Part shown: piece after piece, positions 1 to 24,134 of the stretch
Position numbering within the stretch: the stretch's first letter is position 1
Layout: each line of letters begins with the position of its first letter
Origin: an uncultured virus (IMG/VR IMGVR_UViG_3300030116_004023)
Taxonomy: Duplodnaviria; Heunggongvirae; Uroviricota; Caudoviricetes
IMG/VR virus record: IMGVR_UViG_3300030116_004023
DNA length: 64,000 nt
Strand: one strand, 5' to 3'
The notes under the pieces: generated by a model
The model's database searches: none
Seen by the model: the letters and a program-made list of their open reading frames with translations, nothing else
Told to the model about the DNA's origin: nothing
Program-made: the position numbers and the translations under genes

Positions 1-100
1 AACGTCTTCCAATTCCTAAGTAGTACCCTAATACCCTTGAATGTCTGAACAGGTCTAAAATCGCATTCTAAGAGCATCTAGACCTATTCAATATAGCCAT

Positions 101-853
101 CTAGACTGTAGATAGATTATCTCTTACTAGATTTAATCTTTTGATCTTATATGATTCATGATTTTTTGGTTGTGTGCCATGTACCAATAAAGCAAAGCTA
201 TTATTTTGAGAAATTGCTAGACGTTCATCGACATCAATTTTTAATCCTAATTTTTCAGACTCATTTTCAGAATAAACCACTTTAGAGAATTGAAGATTAT
301 ATTTTTTGATTAGATGGTCTTGATTATTAGTCCCTAAACTAGCAATCAATTTGAAATTTTCAAGACTATCAATTTCATCAAGGTTATTAATCCAAAATGG
401 AATACTTGTAGTATAAGCATAGAAGATTATATCTTTATTATTCCTAGCTACTTTTAACCATGCTTGTAGGTAACGTTCATTGAAAAAATCTCCACTTGAA
501 TGTATCCTAACTATTTTACAGTTATGTTGCTTTAAACTACTATCAATTAAATCAGCCATTTTATCTACACTTTTATGGTGTTTTCTAAGAAGGTCAAAAT
601 TGTATTTATTGTTAGCTTTAAAATCAGGTCTATACTCTTCTAAACTGATTGCATAACACTTGTAAATTTTTTGGCAATCGTATGCATATGGACAAGTTGT
701 AACAGGTGGCAAATTGAAAATTTTTATATCTGATTTTTTAACATCTAACCAATTAGGAATTTTATCTAATTTTTGATTAGAATTTGAAAACTTTAAATAT
801 TCTCTATTTTCTGTATTCTCATCAACTAATTTTATGTACTTTGAATCTATCAT
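101..853 (-). CDS. Gene product 88 (GP88)-like protein, radical-SAM-like fold
   Basis: FNLP..TCP..C....CYA cysteine cluster, RIHSSGDF and FYAYT motifs typical of the phage GP88 family. Confidence 0.75.
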   Translation of the reverse strand: MIDSKYIKLVDENTENREYLKFSNSNQKLDKIPNWLDVKKSDIKIFNLPPVTTCPYAYDCQKIYKCYAISLEEYRPDFKANNKYNFDLLRKHHKSVDKMADLIDSSLKQHNCKIVRIHSSGDFFNERYLQAWLKVARNNKDIIFYAYTTSIPFWINNLDEIDSLENFKLIASLGTNNQDHLIKKYNLQFSKVVYSENESEKLGLKIDVDERLAISQNNSFALLVHGTQPKNHESYKIKRLNLVRDNLSTV

Positions 854-887
854 AATATCTCACTTTTAAATTGTATATTTTCAAGTG

Positions 888-916
888 ATTATATCAGCTA
901 ATAATTTATAATACAA
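888..916 (-). promoter_or_regulatory. Host sigma70-type promoter for the gp88-like gene
   Basis: Minus strand TTGTAT-N17-TATAAT with TGn extension, 35 nt upstream of ATG at 853. Confidence 0.75.
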
Positions 917-1560
917 GTTACGTTAAACTAACTAGGATTAAAGACTAATATTTTTATAGTCTGATCTAATGGAATGATTAAACAATTCTGATATCTGGAC
1001 TGAATCTTTTATTAATCCTAGCTTAGATAATCTAGATAATTCTTTAGTTATTGATTCCAAGTTTTTTAAGTCTTTTGTCTGAATGTTTATTTTATAAATC
1101 ATATTTCTTTAGTTTGATTCCTATTTTTTGAAAATTCTTACTTTGTAGATAGAAAATTTTTAATATAGTATCTAGTAGTTTGTAAACTCTTTTAGTTTGC
1201 TAAGGTATTATATTTTGTTTGTTTCCCTTGTGTTTGTTTCCTTATGTTTCCTTATAATATAAGTTTGTTTTATAATTTTGTCTGATATGTTTTCTAAGTC
1301 TTCTAATAATGTTTCTTCGTTCCTAGTTTTTTCTGCCATTGCGTTCCTCAGATTGCGTTCTAAGGTCATCATAATTTTTTCAAAGTGTTCATATACTGCT
1401 GTCATTCCTAATCATCCTATATTGTCAATCTGATAGTATTTTTTATTCCTAAACTCTTCTAGTATTTTCTCTTCCAACTCTTTAGGTGTGAAATTTGGAT
1501 TATCTCCAATAGTCTTTACTTTGATATTTTTTTGTTTCCTATTCTTAGCCACGATTATTC

Positions 1561-1845
1561 CTAATTCTTTACTTCTTCTAATCTCTCATAATGATAGTAA
1601 GATGCTGTCTTCCATTTATCTGCATAAGGTATGAAATTGAAATCATTAATTACTGCATTGTACTCATCAATTTTAGTGTCTCTTAGTTTAGGTGTATAAA
1701 CTGAATGATAAACTACATTTTTCTCAGCATATACAGTCAAACATTCTTGGCAATAATACTTAGTCTCAACTCCAATACTAGTTACGATTGTTTCACTATA
1801 TCCATCTACTATTTTTGATCTATTACAGTTATGACATTTTTTCAA
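1561..1845 (-). CDS. Hypothetical zinc-finger protein
   Basis: CHNC...CQEC pairs. Confidence 0.55.
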   Translation of the reverse strand: MKKCHNCNRSKIVDGYSETIVTSIGVETKYYCQECLTVYAEKNVVYHSVYTPKLRDTKIDEYNAVINDFNFIPYADKWKTASYYHYERLEEVKN

Positions 1846-2833
1846 TTTGTTCTCCTCTTATTACTGCATTCGAATTGTGTAATTTTTTCTCTTTTAGCCA
1901 AGTTTCATATTTCACACTTTGCCACTCATCCAAGTAAAACTCATCATCATCATTTTGTTTAAAATCATCTAGGAAATTTTCAACATTTTGATGGAATGTT
2001 TCATGGTCATTTATCTCCATACACTTGAAATAAATATCTGACCTTAATTGGTATGGATTTTCTAATCCTAATACCTTGTTACGTTGAATCTCAGATAAGA
2101 TAATTTGCTTTTGTTTTCTATTCAATTCTCTACTCATTAAAAAATCCTTTACTACTACTATTCATGGTAGCACAATACATATCAAAATCTCTAATCATAC
2201 TACCAATTTCAGAATCATAAACATCATATTTATCTCTTAGTTTACGAACATCACTTTGACCAAAATTTTCAGTCATCTTACCTTGCTGGATTTTAGTAAG
2301 TAATTTCTTATCAATTCTCTTTATATCTCTAATTAAATTTTTCATCATTTTATTTCCTAATCCTAGCTAGTTTTATCTTCATCTATAACTGATATGTATT
2401 TTTCTACTGCTTTATCTAATGAATCAAAGTATGAATAATCAATTTCATTCTCTAAGTCAAAATACTCTACTACAACTACATATTTACTACCATCATCATT
2501 GCAATATATCTTCACAATAGCATTATCATTATTCAGATATTTCTGAGACATTTTTTTATTAATTTTTGTATCCATTTTATCTCCAATCCTAGCTAGTTTT
2601 ATATTGCCAACTCTTCATCTTCTAAACATGGTTTACAATAATATTCGTAGCTAGTTTTATTTTCATGTTTGTATCTAGTTTCATTCTTACAACTGCCATC
2701 TTTTATCCATGAGCAAATATTTTTGAATCTACCAATCTCACTTGTATTTTTAATATTTTTTTTAATAGCATTACTATTAATTCTTCTCACGTTATCCTGA
2801 TAGACTTTATCTCTATAAGATAAAGTTTCTTTA

Positions 2834-3241
2834 TCAACTGTTTTTGGCATTATGTACAATCCTATAAGTCTTCTTATTACTTTTGATTAAATAAGTTGTT
2901 TTTATGTTAGCTATTCTATAGCCATTTTTTCTATCAACACCAACAATATTTTTATTCTTAGCATTAGTTAATCTTCTCTTCATATTGGCAACTTTAGTTG
3001 TTTCTGAGACATCTTCATTCTCTACAGGTTTTTTACTCTTCATGCTGAATGTTCTTAATCCTTTAGATGTTACATTCTCAATACCTACGAATGAATTTCT
3101 AAACTCTTTTAAAACAAGCCAATAAGCATACTCTTCACTTATGGGAATATGCTTATTTTCTAATGCTAATTCTAGACGTTTTTCTGAGACTAATTTTTCG
3201 ATCTCATCTTTAGTCAGTTTTTCATCATTTTTATTACTCAA
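2834..3241 (-). CDS. Hypothetical basic protein
   Basis: 135 aa ORF with AGGA RBS; no recognisable family. Confidence 0.55.
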   Translation of the reverse strand: MSNKNDEKLTKDEIEKLVSEKRLELALENKHIPISEEYAYWLVLKEFRNSFVGIENVTSKGLRTFSMKSKKPVENEDVSETTKVANMKRRLTNAKNKNIVGVDRKNGYRIANIKTTYLIKSNKKTYRIVHNAKNS

Positions 3242-3293
3242 ATTATCCTACTTTCTACTAATCTTTTGTATACTTTAAATCTTATCACAAATT

Positions 3294-3590
3294 CTATTTT
3301 TTATTCAGAAGTTTATCTCTATACTCTAAGTCATAATAATACTTAGGTTCATGTGGTTTACTATGGATTATGTTCTGACCTAAACTCTTCTCAACTTCTT
3401 TTAAGACTTCTTTAGGAATATCAACTTCTTGGAATCCACATTGTACACACTTTGGATTTTCATCATACAATTCTACCATGTTACCTGTTTTACACTTTTG
3501 ACATTTCATATTTAAATACCTTTCTTTGCTCTTATTTTGCGTTTTAAGAGCGATCTCTCGATCGCTCTTATAGTTTATACTATCCAACAA
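3294..3590 (-). CDS. Zinc-ribbon protein (true start probably the internal MKCQKC)
   Basis: CQKC...CVQCG; annotated N-terminus overlaps a hairpin and the upstream gene. Confidence 0.55.
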   Translation of the reverse strand: MLDSINYKSDREIALKTQNKSKERYLNMKCQKCKTGNMVELYDENPKCVQCGFQEVDIPKEVLKEVEKSLGQNIIHSKPHEPKYYYDLEYRDKLLNKK

Positions 3591-4635
3591 ATTCTAATGC
3601 CTTAGAAAATGCCCTAGCTTTATTTCTTGCTCTATCTCCTGATGGGATGAATGCGTTAGCTGATTCTCCACGCATTTTTCTAAAATCTTCAGTCTCTACA
3701 ATAGCATTGTAAATTGCCCATGATGTTCTAGCTAATTTTGGATGCTCTTCATTGAAGACATTGTATCTCTCCATAGCATTATCTCTAATAACTTGAGTAT
3801 TACTCTTCTTCTTCTCAATAATCGCAAAGTCTTCTAATTGTTTCTTAATCATTTTTGGTGTCAATTCTAGATTTTTTCTATTGTTGATTCTCTGACTAGG
3901 TTTAGTTTCTTGATAAGTATATTCAAGAATCTCAGTTACATCAGACTTCTTTAGTTTATTAGTAGCCATGCTATCCATAGCTTGTATTGTTTGTTCTTGC
4001 TTAGTAACTAATTGATTAAACATCTTAGAAAACTCTACTACTTCATCCCCAATACCTTTTCTATGACTTAAACCTAGTGAAACACTAGATGATTTTTCTG
4101 CTGAGACTAAAGCATTCTGACATACAACTCTGATAGGTGTAAAAGCCATCTGAAACTTACCTTGACCATCTCTAGAATCTACTATTAGCCAATATAACTC
4201 ATGATCTTCATTAGCTATTTTAGAATTTCCTAAATTCAAGGTCATGTATAATTTCTTACCATTACCATCAACACCAATAGTTTCAACAGGAAATTCTGTA
4301 GAAATTTTTTCGAAACTTTTAGCGACAACCTTTGGTTGTAAAATTTCATAATCTTTACCTACTGAATCAGATATTTTCCTGAATTTTTTATCCATTTTAG
4401 TTGGTTTTCTATAGATAGCATATTTATCTGTATCATCTATATCCCCATTTTCTAAATGTGCTTTAAGTGGTACTTTCTCAAGGTCAGCTAATAAGTCTAA
4501 TTCTTGAAGACCTTGTTTTACTGTTACCTTATCACTAGCTGAGAATGTTCTAATCGCTGAACGTGACCATGCTCTCTGTCTAGTTGCTAAGTTGTTGCCA
4601 AATAAATCTGTATTTTGTGAAGTCATTTTACTCAC
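3580..4635 (-). CDS. DUF932 (phage/plasmid-like, TIGR03299-type) protein
   Basis: DSRDG...AFTPIRVVCQNAL, VGKDYEILQ and TSWAIYNAIVE motifs characteristic of DUF932. Confidence 0.85.
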   Translation of the reverse strand: MSKMTSQNTDLFGNNLATRQRAWSRSAIRTFSASDKVTVKQGLQELDLLADLEKVPLKAHLENGDIDDTDKYAIYRKPTKMDKKFRKISDSVGKDYEILQPKVVAKSFEKISTEFPVETIGVDGNGKKLYMTLNLGNSKIANEDHELYWLIVDSRDGQGKFQMAFTPIRVVCQNALVSAEKSSSVSLGLSHRKGIGDEVVEFSKMFNQLVTKQEQTIQAMDSMATNKLKKSDVTEILEYTYQETKPSQRINNRKNLELTPKMIKKQLEDFAIIEKKKSNTQVIRDNAMERYNVFNEEHPKLARTSWAIYNAIVETEDFRKMRGESANAFIPSGDRARNKARAFSKALEFVG

Positions 4636-4681
4636 TCTTTCATACTTGTTTTCTACTAAAAAATAATAGTAGTTACTATTG

Positions 4682-4710
4682 ATAATACATGAATAAAAAA
4701 ACTATGTCAA
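4682..4710 (-). promoter_or_regulatory. Host sigma70-type promoter for the DUF932 operon
   Basis: TTGACA-N17-TATTAT on the minus strand; a repeat copy lies just upstream of the -35. Confidence 0.8.
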
Positions 4711-4771
4711 ACGTAGCTAGTTTTAACTAGCCAATATTAGCTAGGAATAATACTAGCTAGGATTAAACAAA

Positions 4772-4813
4772 AATACCTACTATTACAAAATATGAAAAAT
4801 AATAGTAGGTATT
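4772..4813 (-). terminator. Probable intrinsic terminator
   Basis: 14-bp perfect inverted repeat AATACCTACTATTA/TAATAGTAGGTATT followed by a T-rich run on the minus strand, just upstream of a promoter. Confidence 0.6.
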
Positions 4814-4941
4814 CTTATGGAAGCATTATGGTGTACTGACTTCCTGTTACTAATCGTTTCCATCAGTCTCTTACCTTGTCTTATAGAATGTTTATAATCC
4901 CATTCCACAGGAATTTAGACCATTCCTATTCCTAGTTTGTT

Positions 4942-5070
4942 TTATATTCTTGCCACTCTCCTATTCAGAAAGAATCTTGCACCACACTCACAGTATTCGA
5001 ATACATCATCATTTTCTTTCCTGTAAAGGTCTCTGCATATGTGTATTAGGTCATTCCTATTCCTAGTCAC
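4942..5070 (-). CDS. Small 42 aa putative metal-binding protein (not in ORF track)
   Basis: GTG start, translation MTRNRNDLIHICRD...YCECGARFFLNRRVARI; ends at a repeat copy. Confidence 0.45.
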   Translation of the reverse strand: MTRNRNDLIHICRDLYRKENDDVFEYCECGARFFLNRRVARI

Positions 5071-6614
5071 GATTGTTTCTTCCTATTCCTAATAATAGCT
5101 AGTTTTCTCTTCCTACGTCTTCTGTTCATTCTATGTGCCATCTTTATTCCTATTCGTATGAGTATTCTTTTAGTGTTTCTAACCAATCTAGATAGATTTC
5201 TTCTTCTGCATTCTCTCTAAAATACTGAATAAAGCATGACAATATTTCTTCCCTATCTTCTTCCTGTCTTAGTATGTCTACTAACTCTTGAAAGTGTGTC
5301 TTAAAACTATGACTAAAAGATAGATTCAAACAGCTATCATTCAAGATTCCTAAATCTAGCTTTCTTCCAAATAATTCATCTTCTTTTACTTGTACTAATG
5401 TCTTACTTGTCATGCTAATTTCCCTTTCCTGATCACATGGTTAGCTAGTCTACCATGCTTGTTCAAGTGTGATAAAACAACTGTACGTGCATCATACTTG
5501 TTTCCAATTTGTTTCATTGCTTTCTTGAAAGTCATCTCTTCAAAACTGTCTATGACTTTATTGTTCTTATCTAATACTTCAAATTTTTTCATTCTCTATC
5601 TCCTCTACTATGTCTGTTATTAATTCTCTATAAGCCATCTCTAGTGTAGGATTTTCGTCAGAATAAGCATCCAAATTGTATTCATGTATTTCTTTTACTC
5701 TGTCTACAAAGTCTGCTAGAGAACCTATCCCCTTATTTTCTAAGTATTCTGTCAATTTATCCATATTCATTGTGTATTCCTAATCGTAGCTAGTTTTAAC
5801 TGTCTGTAAGAACCTTAGAACCACGTCTTTCAAATGGTGTCCACACACTTGATGGATGCTTACCATCAATAGCAGATTTCTCGAATGCATCAAGTTGATA
5901 GACTGATAAATCTAACTTAACCACTTCTCTCAGTAGGTCTTCTCCTGACATATGTCTTATTTTTTCAATTACTGCGTCAGCTACAAAAGTCTCTTTCTCA
6001 TCTAGAAAGCCACCTTTGAATGCACCATAAACATAATGAAAGATAAAGTTTCTTATATCTGCCACATTAAGTCTTGAACTCGCTAATTTTGTTTCTATAT
6101 CTAATCTAATACTATTATCAAGCATCTTCATACTCCTTATTAATTGTTTCTTTATATTCTAAGTCTATCATAGCATCACTTTTTTTGTCGAAAGGTGTGA
6201 TACCCTCGAACCTAAACATTCTGTCTAAGCTATCGTACTCTGCACCTGTTAAAGCATCTGAAGTAGTCTTGAATAGTTGTGCTACTCTGTCAATCTCCGA
6301 AGCAACTAGTGTATCTATCTTATCTTCTCTGGTCATTTTTTTCTCCTTATCAATCCTTTATCATTAAAATAAAAGTTGGCATGAAAGTGTAGTTGCATAC
6401 TAGCTAGTTTCTTATCGTGGTTAGGATTATCGTAGTATGGATTATTGATCATTCTATATTCTCTGTTACTCTTTCCCATTTCTGTTTCGTAGCTAGTTTT
6501 TTCAAGCTAGGTAAACAAGCCATGTATGTTTCTTCATCATGAAACTTAGCTACTTCTTCTGAAGCATAACCTCTTTCAAAATATACATTAATCATTCTCT
6601 ATTCCTAGTTAGTT

Positions 6615-6905
6615 TTAATCTCTCCAAACAGTCTTCATGAAGTGATTATCATTTTTATACTCTTTCACTTCTTTCTCAATTTCTTCGTGTTCTCCACATA
6701 TACAATCCCAATCTAATTGTTCTTCATCAACAATTATAGGATAGTTTCCACCACATCTACTGTTATTAATACACTCGGCATAGTACCCAACTGAATGGAA
6801 ATCAAGCACTTCATTGCATTTTGGACAAGCTAACCCATCAAAAGCAGACTCGTACCCAATGTAATCACACTCAGCACAGTATCTTTTTATTTGAAAGGTA
6901 CTCAT
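6615..6905 (-). CDS. Cys-rich double zinc-ribbon protein
   Basis: CAEC..CPKC and C....RCG..CICG motifs. Confidence 0.6.
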   Translation of the reverse strand: MSTFQIKRYCAECDYIGYESAFDGLACPKCNEVLDFHSVGYYAECINNSRCGGNYPIIVDEEQLDWDCICGEHEEIEKEVKEYKNDNHFMKTVWRD

Positions 6906-7402
6906 TCTAAATTCTCCAATCTTCCATATAAAGTTATCCCATAATCGTAACCTTGTTTGTAGTAAAAGTCATGTTTATTATCATCTCTCGTGCCATGTAG
7001 TAATCCATCAGCAACTCCATGTTTGAACATCTCTATATAATTTTTACTCATTCAATTTTCTCCTCGCCACAATACGTACATACTATAACATCACAAACTA
7101 GATTATTTTCTTTACAAGCATAACAATCTAAGTATCTGAAATCTCTACATACGTGTAAATCTTTTACTGTCATAATTTATTAATCCTAGTTAGTTTTAAA
7201 GTAATCCAAGACTGTTTCAAAATCGAACCATCTTGATTTATCTTCGTTGAAAAATACTATTTCATCATCTTGCAGACCTATTGAATCTAAGGTCTCTAAT
7301 TCAAAATCCCCATCCATGTAGTCTGCTTTAAATGGCATCTTGCATCCTAAGTAACTTGTTAGTACATCTGAGATTAGGTTTATTAGTGTTTGGTTTTTTA
7401 TA

Positions 7403-7972
7403 TTAAATGTCATTCTTTACCATTTCTTCATTATAATATTTTTTATATACCTCGTACTTAGCAAGATTGTCATAAGCTGTTAGATCAGGTGTAGGTATCC
7501 AATCCTTATTAGGATAAAACACTCTTTCCAAAAGATATAGACATCTCCTTGTCCAACTAATACTTTCTACACTCCCCACAACAATTTCTAGTGTGGACTC
7601 TGCACCATAGTTAACTTCGTCATCAAGACGTTTAAGCAGTACAGGATAACTACAGTCTATACAATTCTCTCTTTCTTCTAATAAGCCATCAGGTTTACTT
7701 TTCCAATCCCAATCATCAGGTTCTGAAATGTGGTCAGCACAATCAAATGGGTCGAAGTAATGTGGTTTCATAGTGTTGTCAGTATTGTATGCTTCTTTTA
7801 GTAGCATCTCCTCAAACTTTTGTTCATCTGCTTCATAATCTGTTAGAGACTTATCAACAAGACAATAGGACTCTGCAAAAAAATTCCCATCTGCTCTACT
7901 CTCCTCGCCACTTTCATCTTCCCACTCATCATTTGTATAAACTGTTTGTAGCTTAAATTTTACTAATAACAT
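7403..7972 (-). CDS. Acidic hypothetical protein
   Basis: 189 aa, Asp/Glu-rich, AGGAG RBS embedded in a repeat copy. Confidence 0.6.
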   Translation of the reverse strand: MLLVKFKLQTVYTNDEWEDESGEESRADGNFFAESYCLVDKSLTDYEADEQKFEEMLLKEAYNTDNTMKPHYFDPFDCADHISEPDDWDWKSKPDGLLEERENCIDCSYPVLLKRLDDEVNYGAESTLEIVVGSVESISWTRRCLYLLERVFYPNKDWIPTPDLTAYDNLAKYEVYKKYYNEEMVKNDI

Positions 7973-9065
7973 TTTGTTCTCCTAATCCTAGCTAGTTTTA
8001 ATTTCTTCTACCCATATGCTTTCATCATCTAGGTCTACGTCCTTTTCAGATAGGAATGTAATCGCATCTTGCTCTGTCTCAAACTCTAATGTCTTATCAT
8101 TGTCATCTTTAGCATATTGAATACCATTCAGACCTATCACTCCACCCACGTTATCTGTTGCAACTACCCACTTGCTCATCGTGTTTTATCCTTATCTCTG
8201 AATAGAAAGTTTTCTAAACCCTTTATTCTGTCTGTCAATTCAATTTTATCGCCTATCAGTTTAGCTATTATATTATCCAAAGTATCCATTCGTTTTCTAT
8301 CAGACTCCATTTTTTTATCTATTGCTAAGAACCACTCTGCTATATGATTATTGTTCTTCATTAAGACTTTCATATCTTCTTTTATTTGTAACATTTTCTC
8401 GCCATCATCAGCAGTTGGTTTAAAATGTGCTTCATGTTCTTGTAACTTTTTATCCACGTACTTCACTTTCTGTTTGCTCTTTCTTTTAGAATACCACAAT
8501 TATTTTTCAATGTCTTTTTTTCTACTGTTCTTTAGTTTAGAGACATTCGCTAAACCTTTAGTTATAACTGAGTCTCTATGATCTCTGAAATTAGACAGTT
8601 TACTTGCTCTTTGTTTTAGATGTTCTAGGTTATCGTAGCTAGTATTAAGGTGTGACTTAGTGATCTTAATCAACATTCTTTTTCTGTGACTTACTAACTC
8701 CCAATATCCCCACACCTTTTTCTTATTCATCCACCACTCCGATTTTATATCCTATTGGATAAGATGTTTTTGTACCATCTTTAGCATAGAAAGTTATTTC
8801 TTTCTCAGTTGGTACTTCAAAGTCTAATGCTAACTTTGATACAGAAACTTTAGCTAGGAAATATTTAGTCAGGTTATCTCTATTGTTTTCAATAAAACTT
8901 GTTTTGATTTCTTTCTTGAAATACTTCTCGAACCAATACTTCAATCTATTGGCATCTAAGAACCATATCTTCTTAGCTAATCTGTTCTCTAAAGAACCTT
9001 TTTCATATCTATCATCTATCCATTGTATCATTGTATTTCTCCTGTATTCTAATCCTAGTTTGTTT

Positions 9066-9266
9066 TTATTCTGACCCTACCAAAATAACTTCTCCATCTA
9101 ATTCGTAGCCACTACTACCTTGATGGTGTACTTCAACACGTCTTAGCCAAATGTTTTCTTCATCGGAATAAAACTGCCAAGAATGTTTTGATGTATTTTC
9201 TATTCTAACATCAAGTGTCTTATCTTCTATCTGTTGCAATTCTTTTATTAATTCTTCTACTGTCAT
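9066..9266 (-). CDS. Small phage protein (MTVEEL family)
   Basis: MTVEELIKELQ...DVRI...VILVG; resembles both halves of 9527..10072. Confidence 0.6.
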   Translation of the reverse strand: MTVEELIKELQQIEDKTLDVRIENTSKHSWQFYSDEENIWLRRVEVHHQGSSGYELDGEVILVGSE

Positions 9267-9526
9267 CTCTATCTCCTATGCAATTCTGTGATATCTACCA
9301 TTTATTATCTCGTAGTTATCTACCACATCTTCGCCTAATAAAGTTGCGTTTTCATAATCTTCATCTTCAATAATTAACTGCCCTGTTACTGTTCTGCCAC
9401 CATCTACCATTAAAATCTCTCGTGCTTTATCTTCTGATGAAGCAGTAATTAGATAAGTGTATTGGCATGGTACTGCAAACATATATTCTTTTATTGGCAT
9501 TTTTTCTCCTCTAATCCTAGTTAGTT

Positions 9527-10072
9527 TTATTTTACCGAATCTTCTTTTTCTAAAAGGTTTATTAGTGTATCTTTAGTTAGCCACGAGTATGGTATATACA
9601 TCTTAGCTTGTTTATCAAATAATGCATTAGCTTTCTCATTCGCCACCCAACCATAGATAACTACGTTGTCATCATTTAATTCAACTGTCGGAATAGTAAA
9701 AGCATCACATATCCCATAGTACCTATCATTAGATACTCCATCAAATTCTAGTTTGACGTTACTTGCTTTAGGATAATCGTAGGAATGTTCACGTAAAAAA
9801 TCAACCAACTCCTCGACTGTCATGACTACACCTACTGACATAACTTCACTTGGGGTCTCATAAATATCAGCACTAACCTTACTTGGTGTACCACGTAAGA
9901 TAAATGTTTCTTGGGTATATTTCATATCAGTAACCCAATAATTTTTATCTTTTGCATTCTTATCAGCATCTTCAGTTGTATTATACTCTGAACGCAACTG
10001 AGTAGAAGCTACTCTAATTGGTAGGTTATAATCGTCTATTAATTCTAACTGCTCTAATAATTTGTTATGCAT
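9527..10072 (-). CDS. Tandem two-domain paralog of 9066..9266
   Basis: Internal MTVEELVDFL...VVIYG and N-terminal KLLEQLELI...IRVA...FILRG units. Confidence 0.55.
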   Translation of the reverse strand: MHNKLLEQLELIDDYNLPIRVASTQLRSEYNTTEDADKNAKDKNYWVTDMKYTQETFILRGTPSKVSADIYETPSEVMSVGVVMTVEELVDFLREHSYDYPKASNVKLEFDGVSNDRYYGICDAFTIPTVELNDDNVVIYGWVANEKANALFDKQAKMYIPYSWLTKDTLINLLEKEDSVK

Positions 10073-10549
10073 CTTTAATTTCCTGTTCTATCCAATATGC
10101 AAGTGTATCATAAGTCAATCCATTTTCAGCATTATGGTATTTCTGCATCATTCGTAATATGTTTTTAGCTTGGTCATCAGATAACTTTACATCAGGATGA
10201 TTCATTTTAGCCATTTCAAAGACATCATATATTGTCCAAACGTCACAAATATACTCGTCATCTTTATATCCCTCATGTGTTTTTCTTTTAGCACAATTCA
10301 TATCTTACTCCTCTAATCCTAGTTAGTTTTAGTATCTTCTTCATCCCACTCATCTAATTTTTCTAGTAGTGATTCTGCTAATTCTGTACGACCTACGTAA
10401 ATTTGTTCACTACCATCTGCCATCTCTACTTCGCCACTTACTATAGGTTTTTCATCTTCTATTATTTCATTCAAAAAATCTCTGATCTTTTGATTGCCAC
10501 CTTTGTTGAAATAGTTTATTGAATTATCTTCTTTACTCATCTCTATCTC

Positions 10550-11026
10550 CTATTCTGCTTCTTCTAATTTAGAAAACCACTCAAGGTCATTCTTTACAGG
10601 TTCTCCTTTTTTTATACATTCTAAGTTTTCATCTAACTCTTTTACAAGTTGTTTTGCTACTGCACTACCTAAATTCTCAAACTTTCCAATATACAAATAA
10701 CTTTCTGCCCACCAATCAATATACTCATACACAATATCTTCTTTGTCATTGTCATTGTATATTGATGCAGGACAACTAGGTTCATCTTTGTCTCTAAACT
10801 CTGCCCCATATCCCATACCCCACCAATTACCATCATCACAAGCTACTGCTGAATCTCCTACGTAGACCATGTTTGCACCACACTCATCACATAACCACTC
10901 AAAAGGAACTTCGTAGTCATAAAACCCATCATCACGTGTAAGTTTTCTGTTGCCAAGCCATACTGCTTGAGTACTTGGATTATCTTTCAATAACTGAACC
11001 ATACGTTGTGCTTCTTTTTTTATCAT
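10550..11026 (-). CDS. Hypothetical protein with CxxC
   Basis: WLCDECG motif, acidic. Confidence 0.55.
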   Translation of the reverse strand: MIKKEAQRMVQLLKDNPSTQAVWLGNRKLTRDDGFYDYEVPFEWLCDECGANMVYVGDSAVACDDGNWWGMGYGAEFRDKDEPSCPASIYNDNDKEDIVYEYIDWWAESYLYIGKFENLGSAVAKQLVKELDENLECIKKGEPVKNDLEWFSKLEEAE

Positions 11027-11583
11027 CTCTTTAGCACCTCTTCAAGTCTTTCAGAAATACTGTCTAAGTATCCCTCTAACTTCTTTGTATATTCTCTTAA
11101 TGTTTCAACTTCTTCAATCAATGCTTCTACGTTTTCTTTCATTGTCATTTCTTAATCCTCTACTTTCTGTACAAACCATTTTCTCGTACATCAGCTAGTG
11201 TATCTTCTAATTTATGTTTCTCAACCATCGCATCTATAAAATCATAAGCATCTTGAATTGATGGATTGAAGTGTTTTGACCTATACTCACTTGGGCAATC
11301 TTCATCTGCCTGTACACATACCTCGCCCATTTTTAGTAATGCTGTCGCAAAATCTTGTAATATAATTTGACTCATTTCTTAATCCTAACTAGTATTAGTT
11401 TATAATTCTTTTGGGAAAGGTAAATGAATAGTTATTGGGTCATCGAAACTTTCAAAGTTTACTTTCGCACCTTTTGGGTAATAACGTCTTGTTACTTCTT
11501 CAATGTCCTCAAGATAATTCTCTAGTTTTGTTTCTTCTTCTTCTAGTATGCCCATGTCTACTCCTAACTTTCCACTTAACTAA

Positions 11584-11613
11584 AGAATAACACGAAAGAA
11601 AAAATAATGTCAA
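11584..11613 (-). promoter_or_regulatory. Host sigma70-type promoter
   Basis: TTGACA-N18-TATTCT with TGn extension, AT-rich upstream tract; heads the 11.5-4.9 kb gene block. Confidence 0.7.
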
Positions 11614-11645
11614 ATTTTATTTCAAGGTACAAGTACACGTCATCC

Positions 11646-11693
11646 AAAAGAAAAAAGGTACTGACATACCACTAGAGGTAAGCGATGCACCTT
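11646..11693 (-). terminator. Possible terminator (branched hairpin plus U tract)
   Basis: AAGGTGC...GTACCTT stem enclosing a TACC/GGTA stem, followed by TTTTCTTTT. Confidence 0.5.
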
Positions 11694-11728
11694 ATTTTTG
11701 AACATAGAGCCAAGAATTGATGAAAATT

Positions 11729-11896
11729 TTAGTTGTCTTCAGTTATTTCGAATGACTTTCTAAGTCTGATTGTTTCTTTCAAAACATTTTGGGATATATC
11801 AAGTAACTGTTTTTCAACAACTAAAATTCTATAGTTAAGATAAACTAGGATTAGAGAGAAGATTGTAATTACAGAAGAGAAAACTATAAGCCACAT
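11729..11896 (-). CDS. Small single-pass membrane protein, 55 aa (not in ORF track)
   Basis: MWLIVFSSVITIFSLILVYLNYRILVVEKQLLDISQNVLKETIRLRKSFEITEDN. Confidence 0.55.
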   Translation of the reverse strand: MWLIVFSSVITIFSLILVYLNYRILVVEKQLLDISQNVLKETIRLRKSFEITEDN

Positions 11897-11898
11897 AG

Positions 11899-12345
11899 TT
11901 AATGGGGATATTTCTTAGGTTCATCCGTAGCTAGTTTTTCTAACTCTTCAGTAGCTTTATCATTTTCTTCATTGATAGTTTGTTTAGCTTCGGTGTAAGG
12001 AACTAATCCCTCTTCTTCCATAGTAGCTAAGTCAGTAATTCTTTCTTCAATTATAGAGAACACTTGATTTTTCCACTTCTTATTGTCTAGAGCAATGGCA
12101 TTTGGATTCTCAACTTCAAAGCCAATGTGTTCTTCAGCTTCTTTTAGAGTAAGTGTTCTGCTGATATCATTTGGCATACTATCATCAACTTCATTCGTAA
12201 CAATGCCACCACCAAGAATTTGTAATAACTTACCTCTTCGGAAAAATTCTTTATAGTTATTTTTGGTTATCTTAGTAACACCCACAAAAACGCATTGTAA
12301 TTCAACGCATCCTTTAAGTGTCTTTTGTAGTTGGTTTATCTGCAT
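11899..12345 (-). CDS. Hypothetical protein
   Basis: 148 aa ORF overlapping the upstream gene. Confidence 0.6.
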   Translation of the reverse strand: MQINQLQKTLKGCVELQCVFVGVTKITKNNYKEFFRRGKLLQILGGGIVTNEVDDSMPNDISRTLTLKEAEEHIGFEVENPNAIALDNKKWKNQVFSIIEERITDLATMEEEGLVPYTEAKQTINEENDKATEELEKLATDEPKKYPH

Positions 12346-12832
12346 TGCTCTTCTCCTCTGTGCTATCTATCTTAGGAACTATGTCTTCTAAACTTAGGTC
12401 TAAGTCTGATGTAATTCTTTCTATAAACTCTCTTTGCTTAAAGCTATCTTCTAATAGTAGCTTGTATATTTTTCTTATAAGATTGTATCCGACTAACTCA
12501 TCGCCATAAGTTACGAATGACTGACAGCATTCTCTTAGGATATATAATTCGGACATGGTTATGGGCATCTCAGTTGTCTTACTTTGATTTTTTGGGTCAG
12601 TAGTAAGTAGAACTGCTAGACCTACTCTAGTAATCATTTCCACAGAAACTGATACTGTCGCACTAGCTTTTATTGATCTCGCTGGTATTTGGAATGACTT
12701 ATCATCTTTATCATGTTCTAAAAGTAAAGTCATGCTGTCACTCAGGAATAATGCTTCAGCTCTAGTCAAGCTCAACACTTTCATAGCATCTAACTGTTCT
12801 ACAAACTCTTGTTCAGATTGAAAATCATCCAT
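12314..12832 (-). CDS. Hypothetical protein
   Basis: 172 aa ORF with GGAG RBS. Confidence 0.65.
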   Translation of the reverse strand: MDDFQSEQEFVEQLDAMKVLSLTRAEALFLSDSMTLLLEHDKDDKSFQIPARSIKASATVSVSVEMITRVGLAVLLTTDPKNQSKTTEMPITMSELYILRECCQSFVTYGDELVGYNLIRKIYKLLLEDSFKQREFIERITSDLDLSLEDIVPKIDSTEEKSNADKPTTKDT

Positions 12833-12962
12833 TATAGTATTTTTCTCCTACAGGTTTTAAACATCTTCTACACAAATAGATACTACGTTTTCTCCCCTGT
12901 TTTGAAGCCCATGCTTCAATTATTGGAACGTCTGTTTTACATCCGAAGATTTTACAGACCAT
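12825..12962 (-). CDS. Small zinc-finger protein, 45 aa (not in ORF track)
   Basis: MVCKIFGCK...YLCRRCLK; ATG lies 7 nt after TATAAT. Confidence 0.5.
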   Translation of the reverse strand: MVCKIFGCKTDVPIIEAWASKQGRKRSIYLCRRCLKPVGEKYYNG

Positions 12963-13346
12963 TCTATTTATTATACTCACTTTATTTATTATTCTGATTC
13001 AACCTAAACTCGACTTCTTGCAGTCGCCTATCAATCAGGTCTTGTTGGTCTTTTATCTCTTTTACTAATTCTAGTATCTGTGCATAGGAATCTCTGAACT
13101 CATCAGACATACCTAGTAGATACTGCATTACATTCGACATACTGTCTCCTAAAACTAACTAGTTTTAATAACCTAACCCTGTTAGTATTAATCCTAAGAT
13201 TATACAAACTAACAAAAACCTAAATGGATTCGTTAAGAATATATCTAACTCTTCTCCTTTCTCCTCCTCAATGTTTATAACAGCTTTAGCAACCCTTACC
13301 TTTAAGGTGTCGCTTAAAGTAAGTCTATAACATTTTTTTAAAAAAG

Positions 13347-13376
13347 AAAGACCTAACTCCTAAAAGTTAGGTCTTT
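13347..13376. terminator. Intrinsic terminator, possibly bidirectional
   Basis: 12-bp stem AAAGACCTAACT/AGTTAGGTCTTT with T tracts on both strands, directly after the ATPase stop. Confidence 0.8.
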
Positions 13377-13382
13377 TTATTT

Positions 13383-14081
13383 CTAAATGCTTACTGAACT
13401 GTATGCTTTAGATACTTTGTTACTCCACCACGTTGGCATTGATGCTTGTAGCATTGCTTTCTTACCATAGTGATAATCAATCGCATAGACTTTCTTCCTA
13501 GTATCTCCACGCATATTCTCAAAGAGAGCATATGCTTCTTGAATCTCAGGTTTAAATTCTGCTCTAGCACCTCTCAAATGTAATTGAGTTGGTCTTTTGA
13601 GTAGAACTAAGTCTGCATCCATCATAATTTGTATGTCTAATTGTCTAGACTGCTGATGGATAAAGATCAGTAGATGGTCTTTGTGTCTGCATATAGCAAT
13701 CAACTTCAACCAACCCTTGTTATCTTTACTCATTGCGTCTCTTGAATTAGCTATGAATGATGCTTCATCTAAGATGATGATACTTGGTTTCATTTTATTC
13801 ACTTGGTTTATAGAGTTTACGAACTGAATCCCACCTTTACCAAAACCTCGCTTCGGAAAATGCTCTCGGACTGTTCTTGGTAATCCTAAAGCTGAAACAG
13901 GTTTCTTGGTCTTCTGATGTAGCTTCTGTGCTAAATCCCAACCTAAAGCAGATTTACCTTCTCCTCTGTGACCATTTATTATAATGACCCCTTGTGAATA
14001 CTTACTCATAATTTTATGCCATGTAATTGAACTTCTTCGTACAGGTTTTGTACGAGACTTTCGGATAGGTTTTCTAACCAT
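13383..14081 (-). CDS. P-loop ATPase, Zot/FtsK-HerA-like
   Basis: Walker A GHRGEGKS, Walker B IIILDEA, downstream RH...hhhhxQ signature. Confidence 0.75.
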   Translation of the reverse strand: MVRKPIRKSRTKPVRRSSITWHKIMSKYSQGVIIINGHRGEGKSALGWDLAQKLHQKTKKPVSALGLPRTVREHFPKRGFGKGGIQFVNSINQVNKMKPSIIILDEASFIANSRDAMSKDNKGWLKLIAICRHKDHLLIFIHQQSRQLDIQIMMDADLVLLKRPTQLHLRGARAEFKPEIQEAYALFENMRGDTRKKVYAIDYHYGKKAMLQASMPTWWSNKVSKAYSSVSI

Positions 14082-14130
14082 TGTAATTTCCTTTTTAGTC
14101 TGCCCAAGAAAAATCTTGGGCAGTTTGGTT

Positions 14131-14631
14131 TCAAATTTTATATTGATTTTTTCTAGATTGATCTTTTATCTCAGTCAATGCTTTAGCAAAGTTTTCTTGT
14201 GCTTGAGAACCTATGCCATATTTATTGCTTGAACCTAATCTCATTCTATACACAATCTCTAGTGAGACATCAAGACCACTTATCTGCCTAGATGCTAGAT
14301 ACTTAGAATCAACCCAAGCACCATCTCTAAAGTGTATTGTAGTAGTGATGTCATCAATCCCTTTTGTACAATCATCATCTATGTACTTTACTCTATGTTC
14401 AAGATGACTCCACGAAATAACACCATTTCTAGAGTTTTTCTTACCTGTGTATCTATCAATATATTGTGGTTTAACCCAATTTGGTTTTATACCTATTAGC
14501 TTAAACCCTTTGCTTATTAATTCTTTATCACTTTTATCGTCTTCAAAATAAATAGTGTGACCACCTCTATCTGAAACGATTTCAAGAAACTTTTGAATTT
14601 TGGGCAAAGTGTCAAAATCATATGTAACCAT
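14131..14631 (-). CDS. Hypothetical protein (first gene of early block)
   Basis: 166 aa, AAGGA RBS. Confidence 0.65.
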   Translation of the reverse strand: MVTYDFDTLPKIQKFLEIVSDRGGHTIYFEDDKSDKELISKGFKLIGIKPNWVKPQYIDRYTGKKNSRNGVISWSHLEHRVKYIDDDCTKGIDDITTTIHFRDGAWVDSKYLASRQISGLDVSLEIVYRMRLGSSNKYGIGSQAQENFAKALTEIKDQSRKNQYKI

Positions 14632-14816
14632 TGATTTATCCTTATTACTAGTTACTCTTATATTCAGTTGTCAATGTGCGTGGTAGAAAAGTTTTCGTGG
14701 TTCTTATAACAGCTTACAGCTTCTAGGAACATTTGTCCTACAATGTAATTACTCACGTTTTATCTACCTATACTTTCAGTATATATCATAAATGTTACGA
14801 AAGTGTTACATTAATT

Positions 14817-14830
14817 AGAACATATGTTCT
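14817..14830. promoter_or_regulatory. Putative LexA (SOS) box
   Basis: Perfect palindrome AGAACATATGTTCT matching GAAC-N4-GTTC; degenerate second copy GGAACATTTGTCCT at 14726-14739. Confidence 0.6.
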
Positions 14831-14870
14831 GTGAATATCTGTGGTGTGTGCCAGAGAGAATGTCTGGTCT

Positions 14871-14900
14871 TACGTGCGTACGTGTACGTGTGTGTACGTG
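14871..14900. repeat. 30-bp alternating purine/pyrimidine tract
   Basis: TACGTGCGTACGTGTACGTGTGTGTACGTG. Confidence 0.85.
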
Positions 14901-14985
14901 AGGGAAAATTTTTACCTATGTGTAAGCCAATCGGTTCCCTTAACTTTTTTATTTCGGTTCCCTTAAGCTTCGGTTCCCTTAACTT

Positions 14986-15321
14986 CTATCGCTTCCCTTC
15001 AAAGCCAAAATAATCATCTTCATCAAAGTCAAAGATTCCCTTCTCTTCCATGTCTTTGATAGTTTGTTCAATCTTGCTTAGTGGTTTATTCCTCCAAAAC
15101 TGTCGCATGTTAGGAAGCATTTGGACTATCTGGGCAAACCCTCGGTTCCTTATATCGTTCCTTAAATGTTCAAACAGTAAGGTTAGTTGTAATTCATATA
15201 TCCCACCACGTTCCTCTAGTTCCATTATTCTATCGTAACGTTGTTTATTTACTTTTTGAAGCTTTGCTGTCTCTTCTTTTAGTATTTTTAGTGTCTTTTC
15301 TAACTCGTCTTTAGTTGGCAT
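14986..15321 (-). CDS. Hypothetical coiled-coil protein
   Basis: 111 aa; bracketed by GGTTCCCT repeats. Confidence 0.6.
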   Translation of the reverse strand: MPTKDELEKTLKILKEETAKLQKVNKQRYDRIMELEERGGIYELQLTLLFEHLRNDIRNRGFAQIVQMLPNMRQFWRNKPLSKIEQTIKDMEEKGIFDFDEDDYFGFEGKR

Positions 15322-15339
15322 TTGGTTCCCTTAACTTTT

Positions 15340-15783
15340 TTATTTTAGTATATATTTATATTTTACTCCGTGAACTTTGAAAGAATGTTTCAAATCTTTA
15401 TAGGCTTGGTTCCCTATAAAATTTTTTACTACTTCTAAGTACATCCCTGCAAAGTTTTCTCCATGATGGTCTGCATCGGTTCCATTGTAATTTATCACAT
15501 GAGACATTTCATGACAAATGAAAGGAAGAGTTTTTAAAGAAGGATAGGTAAAAGATATTTTATCTTTGGTAGCATATATTATGTTATGCCCATCTTCTAC
15601 AAGTTCAGGAGGTTTTATTTCTGCCCATTGAGATATCTTATACACTATATCTTCTACTTGTTCCCATGTCATTATCTGAGTATCCCCCCAAAATAATGAA
15701 GAATCCTCAGCCTTGTATACTTGGTTCCTTTGAAAATCTCTCACGTGTGTGTTTGGTATATCTCCTATCCAACCCTTTTGCAT
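15340..15783 (-). CDS. Zinc metallopeptidase-like protein (SprT/minigluzincin-type)
   Basis: ICHEMSH (HExxH) followed by HHGENF. Confidence 0.75.
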   Translation of the reverse strand: MQKGWIGDIPNTHVRDFQRNQVYKAEDSSLFWGDTQIMTWEQVEDIVYKISQWAEIKPPELVEDGHNIIYATKDKISFTYPSLKTLPFICHEMSHVINYNGTDADHHGENFAGMYLEVVKNFIGNQAYKDLKHSFKVHGVKYKYILK

Positions 15784-15962
15784 TGATTCCTACTCTCCCA
15801 TCTTCCCCTGAATCTTTTTAGGTGGAATTACTTTTACTTCCTCGTACTTCTTACCTAATGGGTATATTTGTTTCAACCCGATATAGATTCCCTGTATTCC
15901 GGGGTTCCTTTTGCCTACTTCAATTAGTCTTTGCTCTTCTTCATTCATTGGATAATCAATCA

Positions 15963-16424
15963 TTATTTCTTCCTATACTTTGCAGTCTTCCTTGCTATTT
16001 TCTTTGGTTGCCTAGAGAACTGCTTCCCTTGTTTGGTTGCCTTCCTCTTAGCTCTTGTGGTAGCTCCATACTCTTGTGGAGATAGTGCTTCCCTTGCTTT
16101 CTTAGGTAGATACCGTTCCCCTGTCTTCCTACTTGGCTTCCCAGACTTGGTTCCCCACTTCTGTTTAGTCCACCTTGATAAAGAAGACTTACCTGATTTC
16201 TTCCCTTTGTACCCACCACCAGCTTTCTTATATCTTTGAACAGCTAGTTGAGCCTTTCGAGCTGACCATTGTCCCGGTCTACCACCCTTACTACCTGCCT
16301 TTACAGCAGATTTTATACGAGACCACTTCTTAGGGTCTCTTCTTTTAGCGGTTGCTTTTATTATAATATCAGAAAATATGTTTATTGCATAGTCTAAATT
16401 ATTCATTAATCCGTTCCCAGCCAT
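15963..16424 (-). CDS. DUF5872-like highly basic phage protein
   Basis: GGRPGQWSARKAQL...YKKAGGGY...WTKQKW...ERYLP motifs. Confidence 0.8.
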   Translation of the reverse strand: MAGNGLMNNLDYAINIFSDIIIKATAKRRDPKKWSRIKSAVKAGSKGGRPGQWSARKAQLAVQRYKKAGGGYKGKKSGKSSLSRWTKQKWGTKSGKPSRKTGERYLPKKAREALSPQEYGATTRAKRKATKQGKQFSRQPKKIARKTAKYRKK

Positions 16425-16651
16425 TGTTTTACTTTAGGTATTCTAGCTATCCAAGCTATTAATGCCCCAAAAATTATCGTTCCCATCAAGAGAACAAAAA
16501 AGTTAACTTCAGTATATCTGCCAAGACCAACTAGTATTGCATCTTCTATAAAGTGTAATGCACTTACGATTATTGTAATCGAACCAAATTTCTTCACTAA
16601 AACCCCCTGTATTCCTTTGTAATATCTTCCACTTTTGACTATAATAGTCAT
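16406..16651 (-). CDS. Small membrane protein
   Basis: Two hydrophobic segments. Confidence 0.6.
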   Translation of the reverse strand: MTIIVKSGRYYKGIQGVLVKKFGSITIIVSALHFIEDAILVGLGRYTEVNFFVLLMGTIIFGALIAWIARIPKVKQWLGTD

Positions 16652-16662
16652 GGGTGCGAGGG

Positions 16663-16998
16663 CTATTTATAGTTGTCGTACCCACCATAAGTTCTAGTGT
16701 CACCGTAACCACTGATTCCAATGGTCTTTAGTACATCATTAAACCCATCGTGGTCACCCATAATTGTCCGCATCTCATTATCAATGATTGCGTCCTTCTT
16801 CTCTAGCTCTGCTATCTTCTCATTTAGTTCCAATAGTCTCTTAGTAGCTTCAGCGTATTGAGCTTGAACTGCTGCAACGTTATCTGTATTCTCTTCTACC
16901 GAGCTATCCAGTTGTGCTACATACCAAATGATTCCAAATGCTTGAGCTATTATTACTCCTATAATTCCTATAGGTAACTTTATATCTGATAATCCCAT
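16663..16998 (-). CDS. Membrane-anchored coiled-coil protein
   Basis: N-terminal TM segment (IGIIGVIIAQAFGIIWYV) then heptad-like region. Confidence 0.65.
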   Translation of the reverse strand: MGLSDIKLPIGIIGVIIAQAFGIIWYVAQLDSSVEENTDNVAAVQAQYAEATKRLLELNEKIAELEKKDAIIDNEMRTIMGDHDGFNDVLKTIGISGYGDTRTYGGYDNYK

Positions 16999-17010
16999 TC
17001 TATTCCTCTG

Positions 17011-17190
17011 TTACTTTTTTACTCTAAGCCACGCAATTCTAGCTAGTCCTACAACACCAACTGCTACTGATGTCCATGATACTATCTGAACTGTCATTAT
17101 ATCTTCCCCTAAGCCATGACGTGATAAGTCTGCCATGATACCTCCAAACAATATTAAAGGTATTGGGAACCATTGTTTTATTATACTCAT
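17011..17190 (-). CDS. Small two-TM protein, 59 aa (not in ORF track)
   Basis: MSIIKQWFPIPLILFGGIMAD...IVSWTSVAVGVVGLARIAWLRVKK; start overlaps the upstream stop. Confidence 0.6.
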   Translation of the reverse strand: MSIIKQWFPIPLILFGGIMADLSRHGLGEDIMTVQIVSWTSVAVGVVGLARIAWLRVKK

Positions 17191-17483: not shown

Positions 17484-17490
17484 AGATTTT

Positions 17491-17730: not shown

Positions 17731-17739
17731 AAGTCCTCC

Positions 17740-24061: not shown

Positions 24062-24134
24062 AAACGTTATTACATTATACTACGAAAAACTGAAAATCCT
24101 ACTAAAACTAACTACTATTATAATATAAAAGTAA

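Follow-up and report, generated by a model that had tools for sequence, protein, structure and literature searches.

The element described here is a 19-nt motif repeated throughout an array of about 44 small, mostly ORFan genes (925..13166, minus strand) of the uncultured phage recorded as IMGVR_UViG_3300030116_004023; the whole stretch of DNA that was analysed, 64,000 nt in length, is called the window. The motif is a real, conserved feature. It has a defined anatomy, is confined to the array, is conserved at 14 positions, is restricted to one clade, and has hypervariable neighbours at the junctions that carry it. The reading that we prefer, with a probability of a little under one half (about 0.45), is that the motif is a portable translational adapter, with stops in two frames and an AGGA core, whose repetition gives homology for the shuffling of cassettes. 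The upstream gene, whichever it is, would be terminated by the motif in two of the three frames, and AGGA a few bases before the start would allow the downstream gene, whichever it is, to be translated on its own. As unrelated genes are separated by the same 19 nt in a constant orientation, copies could undergo homologous or microhomology recombination, which would delete, insert or swap single-gene cassettes to give viable and correctly punctuated recombinants. Recombination would then be happening in the motif rather than being merely tolerated there, translation would be the selected function, and no dedicated binding protein would be needed. The phage carries a RecA/UvsX-like gene and a weak RuvC-like match.

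Copy number, confinement and conservation

Using TAAAACTAGCTAGGATTAG as the pattern, 17 matches at ≤3 mismatches were found in the window, against 0.17 expected, and for the consensus AAAACTAGCTAGGATTAG a count of 17 was never reached in shuffles (0/100). All 17 lie within 438–13166 and none at 13.2–64 kb, so that the core genome is not equally rich in the motif. Fifteen of the 17 are on the minus strand, the sense and coding strand of every gene, a point on which the initial annotation needs correction. The position weight matrix (PWM) scan at a score ≥17 returned 17 sense and 6 antisense sites, the block-shuffle mean being 0.003 per strand (n=300). Two of the six antisense sites are palindromic shadows of sense sites, and the only sites outside the array are at 30721, within the ribonucleotide reductase (RNR) gene, and at 24103. 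The earlier estimate was about 20 copies, but the count is better given as 17 good copies and about 6 degenerate ones; the degenerate pattern originally proposed has five exact matches, with 0 expected. In the literature searched the motif string was absent, the matches being unrelated primers only.

The motif is also conserved in relatives. A viral contig of 20.6 kb (G002), about 88% identical to the window, has 13 motif matches, compared with 0 for a reversed control pattern. A scan of metagenome contigs with the degenerate pattern gave at least 132 stretches, of which those aligning to the window represent, with G002 included, 27 independent contigs, all of them marine and related, in which the motif is kept.

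Anatomy and constraint

The conserved block, T-AAAACTA(G/A)CTA(G/C)GA(T/A)TA(G/A), has no conserved sequence upstream. When its bases are indexed with the leading T as 0, one frame contains the stops TAA at 0–2 and TAR at 6–8 and a second contains TAG at 10–12 and TAR at 16–18, while the third has no stop and reads K-L-A-R-I. The AGGA ribosome-site core occupies bases 11–14, in the 3′ half. Two of the degenerate positions, 8 and 18, are third bases of stop codons; G or A predominates at both, with T found at 18 as well, so that most copies keep TAG or TAA there, and on sequence grounds the stops in the motif are under selection.

At the junction copies of the window, the next start codon lies 3–18 nt downstream. 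This agrees with the suggestion that the motif often supplies the next ribosome-binding site, but several junctions have a separate GGAG after the motif, which is therefore not simply or always that site. In a census of 100 sense copies from 28 contigs, an upstream open reading frame (ORF) could be assigned for 70, and its stop lay inside the motif in 59 of these 70 (TAG at 10–12 in 31, TAA at base 0 in 26 and TAR at 6–8 in two). An ORF start was found 2–20 nt downstream in 66 of the 100 copies.

Constraint was measured on 11 orthologous motif pairs of the window and G002. At the 14 core positions only 5 of 154 sites differ (3.2%, against 12% background, p=1e-4), and at the five degenerate positions 15 of 55 sites differ (27%, against the same background), a divergence as would be expected if the copies exchanged variants.

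The same anatomy could belong to a signal acting at the RNA level, which would co-regulate a subset of early genes. The motif would be either the mRNA site of a phage translational repressor or endoribonuclease, with RegA/RegB-like logic as the model, or an enhancer similar to the start-associated sequences (SAS) of mycobacteriophages. The junction copies are strictly sense, lie 2–20 nt upstream of starts and are confined to the non-structural block of small genes, an anatomy that is the same as that given for SAS in the relevant sections of PMC3203893. The region is also unstructured, six junction RNAs folding no better than shuffles (z −0.10 to +1.28), and a metatranscriptome run (X20) that holds parts of the array as contigs points weakly in the same direction; the uncovered parts are no sign of silence, and contigs cannot show RNA ends. 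However, no candidate RNA-binding protein or nuclease was identified in the analysis, the distance from the motif to the start codon varies, sister clades express orthologous genes without it, and reverse copies and intragenic relics are not accounted for. We consider such a signal quite unlikely.

Variable neighbours and breakpoints at motif junctions

The genes that follow the motif change from one relative to another. The number of distinct downstream neighbours is 2.9 at motif junctions (11 of 13 variable) and 1.5 elsewhere (10 of 25 variable; Mann-Whitney p=1.6e-4). Fifty-nine of 91 homology-block ends lie ≤25 nt from a motif in one of two genomes, and a breakpoint is present at 13 of the 15 motif junctions, compared with 15 of the 29 other junctions (p=0.045). 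By our reading of the alignment between the window and G002, the upstream edge is at a motif in five of the six array indels. The window copy at 7982 is chimeric, with a left flank corresponding to G002 copy 5303 and a right flank corresponding to G002 copy 4949. Among natural variants from runs that were not chosen by motif, the joints 5593>5778 and 7053>7182 end at motifs. At the joint 11144>11372, a natural 227-nt deletion, 15 letters fit both sides; they correspond to half a motif with the Shine-Dalgarno (SD) sequence and ATG (AGGATTAAGAAATGA; 11148..11165, minus strand), repeated at 11372–11386, these being the two ends of the deletion.

Maps of genes and motifs show single-gene units of the form [M]gene[M], namely n40, n73, n24, n39, w7403, w7186 and w2363, and some slots have four or five alternative genes. 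The slot after w5796[M] (copy 5780) is taken by w5579, n39 or n24 and is empty in contigs of runs X8 and X12; the slot after w7988[M] (copy 7982) is taken by five different genes in six contigs. The gene n24 is found at two different loci, and w6902 is relocated. A 166-aa ORFan at 14131–14631 is also a mobile cassette, deleted in contigs of runs X7, X8 and X12 (joint 14110>14644) and located inside the array, just upstream of the DUF932 gene, in contig Ga0208919. The proposal that the repeats are recombination joints for the shuffling of cassettes is supported by these single-gene units, by the slots with four to five contents, by the chimeric flanks and by the 15-nt overlap.

Several points weigh against the motif being an adapter at which recombination is promoted. 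Breakpoints are only modestly enriched over ordinary gene junctions, and the relatives were for the most part retrieved by a search for the motif itself. In the motif-blind runs, 6 of the 11 larger array joints listed have an end ≤12 nt from a motif (a further 21 joints stand outside this count), which is far above the level of random positions (0.11) but about that of random gene junctions (0.56 by our estimate). It could be that independently translated genes simply tolerate breakpoints and do not promote them. A motif is found at only the upstream edge of many cassettes, the downstream edge often being a non-motif junction; the motif is carried by only 13–15 of the roughly 44 junctions, and 19 nt is short for homologous recombination. 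The near-invariant bases A3, A4, C5 and C9 are left unexplained by the stops and AGGA. Finally, the sense copy at 4707–4725 overlaps with its 3′ end a −35 hexamer, TTGACA, and there are four reverse-oriented copies (923, 4748, 11836 and 24103; PWM ≥17, with 0.003 expected), which make no sense as translational adapters.

Part of this evidence would be expected if selection alone were at work, the motif being the start signal of independently translated genes and edges clustering there since splitting a translationally coupled (overlapping) block always entails loss. Most non-motif junctions are overlapping stop/start pairs, many of them invariant in all relatives, and both the downstream edges at non-motif junctions and the baseline level of the motif-blind joints are in agreement with this. 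Nevertheless, several joints are chimeric within the motif, the deletion joint has its 15-nt overlap, variants toggle at the degenerate positions (27% against 12%), and the array is 2–2.7 times longer in the motif-bearing clade, so that we find selection alone rather improbable as the full account.

It is far less probable still that cassettes are excised and integrated by a dedicated recombinase with the motif as its crossover site, on an integron-like platform. Integrons rely on the tyrosine recombinase IntI and on attC sites of 57–141 bp with imperfect inverted repeats. The direct repeats with a central palindrome that flank single genes would suit such a system, as would a GP88-family cassette between two identical reverse copies and a contig joint that runs back from 9502 to 4977, although this joint is ambiguous, being compatible with a circle junction or with a rearrangement. 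However, the Pfam scan of the window gave no transposase family and no recombinase family of the tyrosine or serine type, and the repeat, at 19 nt, is far shorter than attC and does not fold. Many events have a motif at one edge only, and the 15-nt overlap reaches into the SD and ATG, which resembles what homology-driven events produce.

If the motif is indeed a portable translational adapter, it would illustrate cleanly, at the level of populations, the long-standing "linker sequence" idea of how phage genomes become mosaics: a single standardized joint of short length would end the gene before and start the gene after, making accessory genes plug-and-play parts. In natural marine populations there are four to five different genes per slot, and the array of the motif clade is more than twice the length of that in sister clades. 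Primers on the motif could amplify the seawater pool of accessory cassettes, possibly for host takeover or anti-defence, as is done with integron cassettes.

Sister clades without the motif

Three contigs (L188, L200 and L201), found through their protease protein (58–79% identity), carry a homologous array that extends from the homologue of the 12982 gene to the DUF932 gene. No sense-strand site at PWM ≥12 was present in any of the three. Between the two anchor genes they have 10–14 genes in 3.2–4.1 kb, compared with 33 ORFs in 8.5 kb in the window, the homologous array being 2–2.7 times shorter. As this compares one clade with three contigs that are not independent, the link between the motif and array expansion is an association only. 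The junctions of the sister clades have a shorter, stereotyped stop/SD/ATG module, TAGAGGAGTAAGAGATG; its SD-start part also follows the CTAG motif in the present clade, which makes the motif an extension, specific to this clade, at the 5′ end of an older junction module.

The sister-clade contigs have no homologue of the mobile gene 14131–14631 or of the P-loop protein gene 13383–14081. Both are found together with the motif, and either of them, or the helix-turn-helix (HTH)-zinc protein 44626–45021, is a candidate for a clade-specific phage factor that would recognize the motif, silence the early array and target the capture and exchange of cassettes, forming an integron-like platform in a lytic marine phage. 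Such a factor would explain the conserved positions that serve neither stop nor SD, the reverse copies and the 2–2.7-fold expansion of the array; we nonetheless judge its existence very unlikely. Searches of PDB sequences with the three proteins gave nothing significant.

In L188, three copies of TAAAACTTTTTTGA(C/T) were observed at 6011, 7659 and 11679, two of which lead into a −35-like hexamer, TTGACA. The 5′ TAAAAC of the motif resembles this promoter-upstream sequence of the sister clade.

Promoters, symmetry and a possible regulator

Sigma-70-like matches are confined to a few larger gaps of the array. The best, TTGACA-17-TATTAT (11/12; 4682..4710, minus strand), precedes the DUF932 gene, and another, TTGACA-18-TATTCT (10/12; 11584..11613, minus strand), is in a 173-nt gap. 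As promoter-like matches are overall not above shuffles, these are only consensus matches in plausible places. The core genome has a different promoter-like element, TAGTATAAT, with seven sense copies (18676, 24082, 24892, 29802, 53270, 55155 and 61523, minus strand), whereas the array has none. Its upstream sequence is A/T-rich with no conserved −35, and the element is kept downstream of the protease gene at 25 of 26 related loci. This element is probably the middle/late promoter of the extracytoplasmic function (ECF)-like sigma factor of the phage (44067–44591), the array plausibly being an early class and the core a class that depends on the sigma factor. The idea that the motif itself is a promoter for this sigma factor was rejected, since the core uses TAGTATAAT, which is unlike the motif, and 19 nt is too short for a −35 and a −10. 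At the motif-like site 24103–24121, just upstream of a TAGTATAAT element, the central 9-mer is inverted between the window (GTAGTTAGT) and the relative L180 (ACTAACTAC).

These promoters bear on the possibility that the motif is an array of operators, that is, the DNA site of a phage-encoded and probably dimeric regulator that represses an early promoter and blocks elongation at numerous intergenic sites as a stoperator does, recombination being a by-product. The early array would then be shut off when the phage sigma factor takes over. The core of the motif, CTAGCTAG, is a palindrome, and seven of the nine mirrored pairs of the 18-mer are complementary; by our estimate, however, the symmetry beyond CTAGCTAG is not significant (p about 0.14), which also weakens dyad symmetry as proof of a dimeric binder. 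A tandem duplication of CTAG would trivially create the palindrome, and G002 has a single-CTAG version. The best promoter match has its −35 TTGACA overlapped by the copy at 4707–4725, a further three CTAG units stand immediately upstream, and this layout is kept in three relatives, but the early-type promoter at 11613–11584 has no copy nearby. Helical phasing of the four CTAG units before the DUF932 gene was tried and rejected, their spacings being 16, 14 and 10 bp.

The reverse copies, whose scores are far beyond expectation, also favour operators, three of the four being just upstream of promoter-like elements. Against this, two substitutions separate the "reverse" copy at 4748 from a forward copy in a relative, the copy at 24103 is not conserved in L180 or L187, and that at 13149 varies among relatives. 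The distinction between TTGACA-type promoters in the array and TAGTATAAT in the core, in a phage that encodes a sigma factor, and the conservation of core positions unneeded for stops or SD would both fit a regulator. Yet no repressor or integrase family was found among the 28+63 ORFs scanned with Pfam in the window, which may be a few kb short of the genome; the similarity of the HTH-zinc protein 44626–45021 to sigma region 4 is insignificant (E 0.3–0.8), and a symmetric binder does not require the strict sense orientation seen at junctions. On balance we regard an operator array as unlikely. A binding array for a DNA-entry protein, as the initial annotation had also suggested, finds no support in the analysis.

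Comparison with known repeats

The closest functional analogue of the motif is the promoter-early stem-loop (PeSL) of T4-type phages, and the closest anatomical one is the SAS. The original analogies, to SAS and to stoperators, are apt as anatomy, but the PeSLs, which had not been named, are better as to function. As presented in the parts of PMC2839356 and PMC4122927 that concern them, PeSLs are elements of about 100 bp that contain a sigma-70 promoter and a stem-loop terminator, and recombination between neighbouring repeats was shown to produce mini-circles. They too are repeated intergenic elements before ORFans in a hyperplastic early region and include the upstream stop and the downstream SD; they bound indels and replacements between close relatives, with [repeat]-ORFan-[repeat] in one genome and a single repeat in another. 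The motif likewise precedes ORFans and bounds indels, with a breakpoint at 13 of its 15 junctions. However, going by the same accounts, it differs from a PeSL in being 19 nt long, in having no sigma-70 promoter (no conserved sequence upstream) and no stem-loop, and in punctuating translation instead of transcription. Mini-circles are a feature of PeSLs, whereas the motif is known here from contigs.

SAS of Cluster K mycobacteriophages are 13 bp long (GGGATAGGAGCCC), with a spacing of 3–7 bp, and the sections of PMC3203893 that describe them give their function as unknown. From those sections, SAS resemble the motif in being short asymmetric repeats of 11–19 copies in one orientation, in the non-structural half of the genome, placed a few bases before starts in front of unrelated gene families, with an SD core and sometimes the upstream stop; the motif has 15 of its 17 copies sense, all in 438–13166, and spacers of 3–18 nt. 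The two differ in consensus (TAAAACTAGCTAGGATTAG against GGGATAGGAGCCC) and in host phylum, the spacing of SAS is tighter, stops are regular only in the motif, and no role in cassette exchange is reported for SAS in that part of PMC3203893. The behaviour of the motif suggests a role for similar unexplained repeats, such as the mycobacteriophage SAS.

Stoperators are bound by the immunity repressor of temperate phages, which also binds an operator at the early promoter. Like the motif, those of Cluster A mycobacteriophages, the sites of the L5 gp71 system covered in part by PMC9283540, consist of a single short site in many oriented copies, located in small gaps between genes transcribed in one direction, with a copy at the early promoter. 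They differ in that no repressor or integrase family was found by Pfam among the 91 ORFs scanned in the window, and that this phage looks lytic. The intergenic repeats of halovirus HF2 (29 and 58 bp), according to the passages of PMC8707807 that treat them, are promoters by reporter assay. They share with the motif their conservation at conserved intergenic positions across a virus genus, as far as that description goes, but the motif has no promoter features.

Susskind and Botstein, and Clark et al., reportedly proposed linker or boundary sequences for the mosaic lambdoid phages, as short conserved sequences at gene boundaries that serve as preferred crossover points. The lambdoid linkers are sporadic and debated, whereas here one sequence occurs about 17 times within a single array.

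Individual copies

All copies in this paragraph are on the minus strand. The first (TAAAACTAGTTAGTTTTAG; 13149..13167) is in the leader of the first array gene (12982..13140), whose start is 8 nt downstream; it is nearly palindromic and poorly conserved in relatives. The junction copy at 11379..11397 (TAATACTAGTTAGGATTAA) lies 3 nt before the start of ORF 11160..11375 and is the upstream edge of a cassette missing from G002 and from one X12 contig. As first described, four ORFs end in K-T-S/N-stop within a copy: 10319..10540 (TKTN*; copy 10313..10331, next start 11 nt downstream), 7988..8179 (IKTS*; the perfect copy 7982..8000, a hot slot), 7186..7413 (FKTN*; copy 7180..7198, next start 6 nt downstream, an indel edge in G002 and run X7) and 2363..2575 (DKTS*; the perfect copy 2357..2375, next start 8 nt downstream). 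Others were said to stop at the A run, and four do so at the TAA formed with the T before it: 9527..10072 (copy 9511..9529, next start 10 nt downstream), 6615..6905 (copy 6599..6617, with three alternative downstream genes among relatives), 5796..6131 (copy 5780..5798, a CTAC variant and hot slot) and 2599..2859 (copy 2583..2601, next start 7 nt downstream). The fifth, ORF 9066, stops one base further upstream (9066–9068); its copy, AAAAACAAACTAGGATTAG at 9049..9067, is followed by a separate GGAG, with the next start 17 nt downstream.

The intragenic copies reported earlier were also recovered. That at 2641..2659, within ORF 2599..2859, has TAG changed to TAC and is read K-T-S-Y; similar relics are at 6483–6501, 8629–8647 and 11921–11939, and an in-frame copy is at 438–456 (all minus strand). 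Being in an open frame or with TAG changed to TAC, these look like former junctions since read through.

A pile-up of four CTAG units (4707..4766) occupies the 147-nt gap before the DUF932 gene and consists of the reverse-looking copy 4748–4766 (plus strand), two partial units and the sense copy 4707–4725. Next to it, the gene-poor stretch 4783–5150 holds three motif copies, among them GAAAACTAGCTATTATTAG at 5089..5107 and TAAAACAAACTAGGAATAG at 4926..4944 (both minus strand), the latter followed by an ATG-GTC-TAA mini-ORF. The two-codon mini-ORFs, ATG-ACC-TAA and ATG-GTC-TAA, each come after TAGGAATAGGA, and a highly basic ORF of 24 codons has an open frame through the copy 5089–5107. These mini-ORF units may be empty cassettes. 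The pile-up and the units at 4783–5150 can equally well be read as what is left after cassettes were lost again and again at a hot spot.

The reverse-oriented copy at 923..941 (plus strand) coincides with the stop of ORF 938..1102. A promoter-like TTGTAT-17-TATAAT follows 6 nt downstream of this copy and precedes the GP88-family gene. The reverse 19-mer TTAATCCTAGTTAGTTTAA stands on both sides of this gene, which has its own promoter: at 923–941 and, in the relative L118, about 30 nt past the left edge of the window. A "941 to 1" joint that matches the flanking copies was seen in contigs of three runs.

Genome context

The runs that hold the window sequence are labelled marine, estuary or seawater metagenomes. 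All long ORFs are on the minus strand, and 93% of the window is coding by greedy ORF calling. The Pfam scan indicated a tailed-phage genome with an SU10-type capsid, portal, prohead protease, tail fibre and tube as structural genes, RNR, RecA-like, PolA, DnaB and primase for replication and metabolism, and the ECF-like sigma factor (Sigma70_r2, E 3.6e-10). Positions 1–14000 had no GenBank phage match by megablast, no tRNA genes or Rfam families were found in the window, and the terminase gene had weak matches to Bacteroides phages only. Among the viral contigs, the DUF932 protein as a seed returned no relative, and ORFs 13383 and 12314 returned G002 as the sole one. Of the 59 small ORFs at 101–18622, two have a named Pfam family (GP88 and DUF932) and one, 13383..14081, outside the array, has a functional PHROG label.

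For the major capsid protein (21761–23095), the closest cultured relatives are haloarchaeal tailed viruses and a Methanofastidiosa virus (23–31% identity), in contrast to the replication genes and sigma factor, which are bacterial in type. An intrinsic-terminator-like hairpin (13347..13376, minus strand) closes the upstream unit just before the array. Further upstream, the 354-nt non-coding stretch 14632–14985 contains three direct repeats of GTTAAGGGAACCGA (GGGAACCGA at 14978, 14962 and 14939), followed by CACGTACAC-type repeats; it is a possible origin, packaging site or further binding array.

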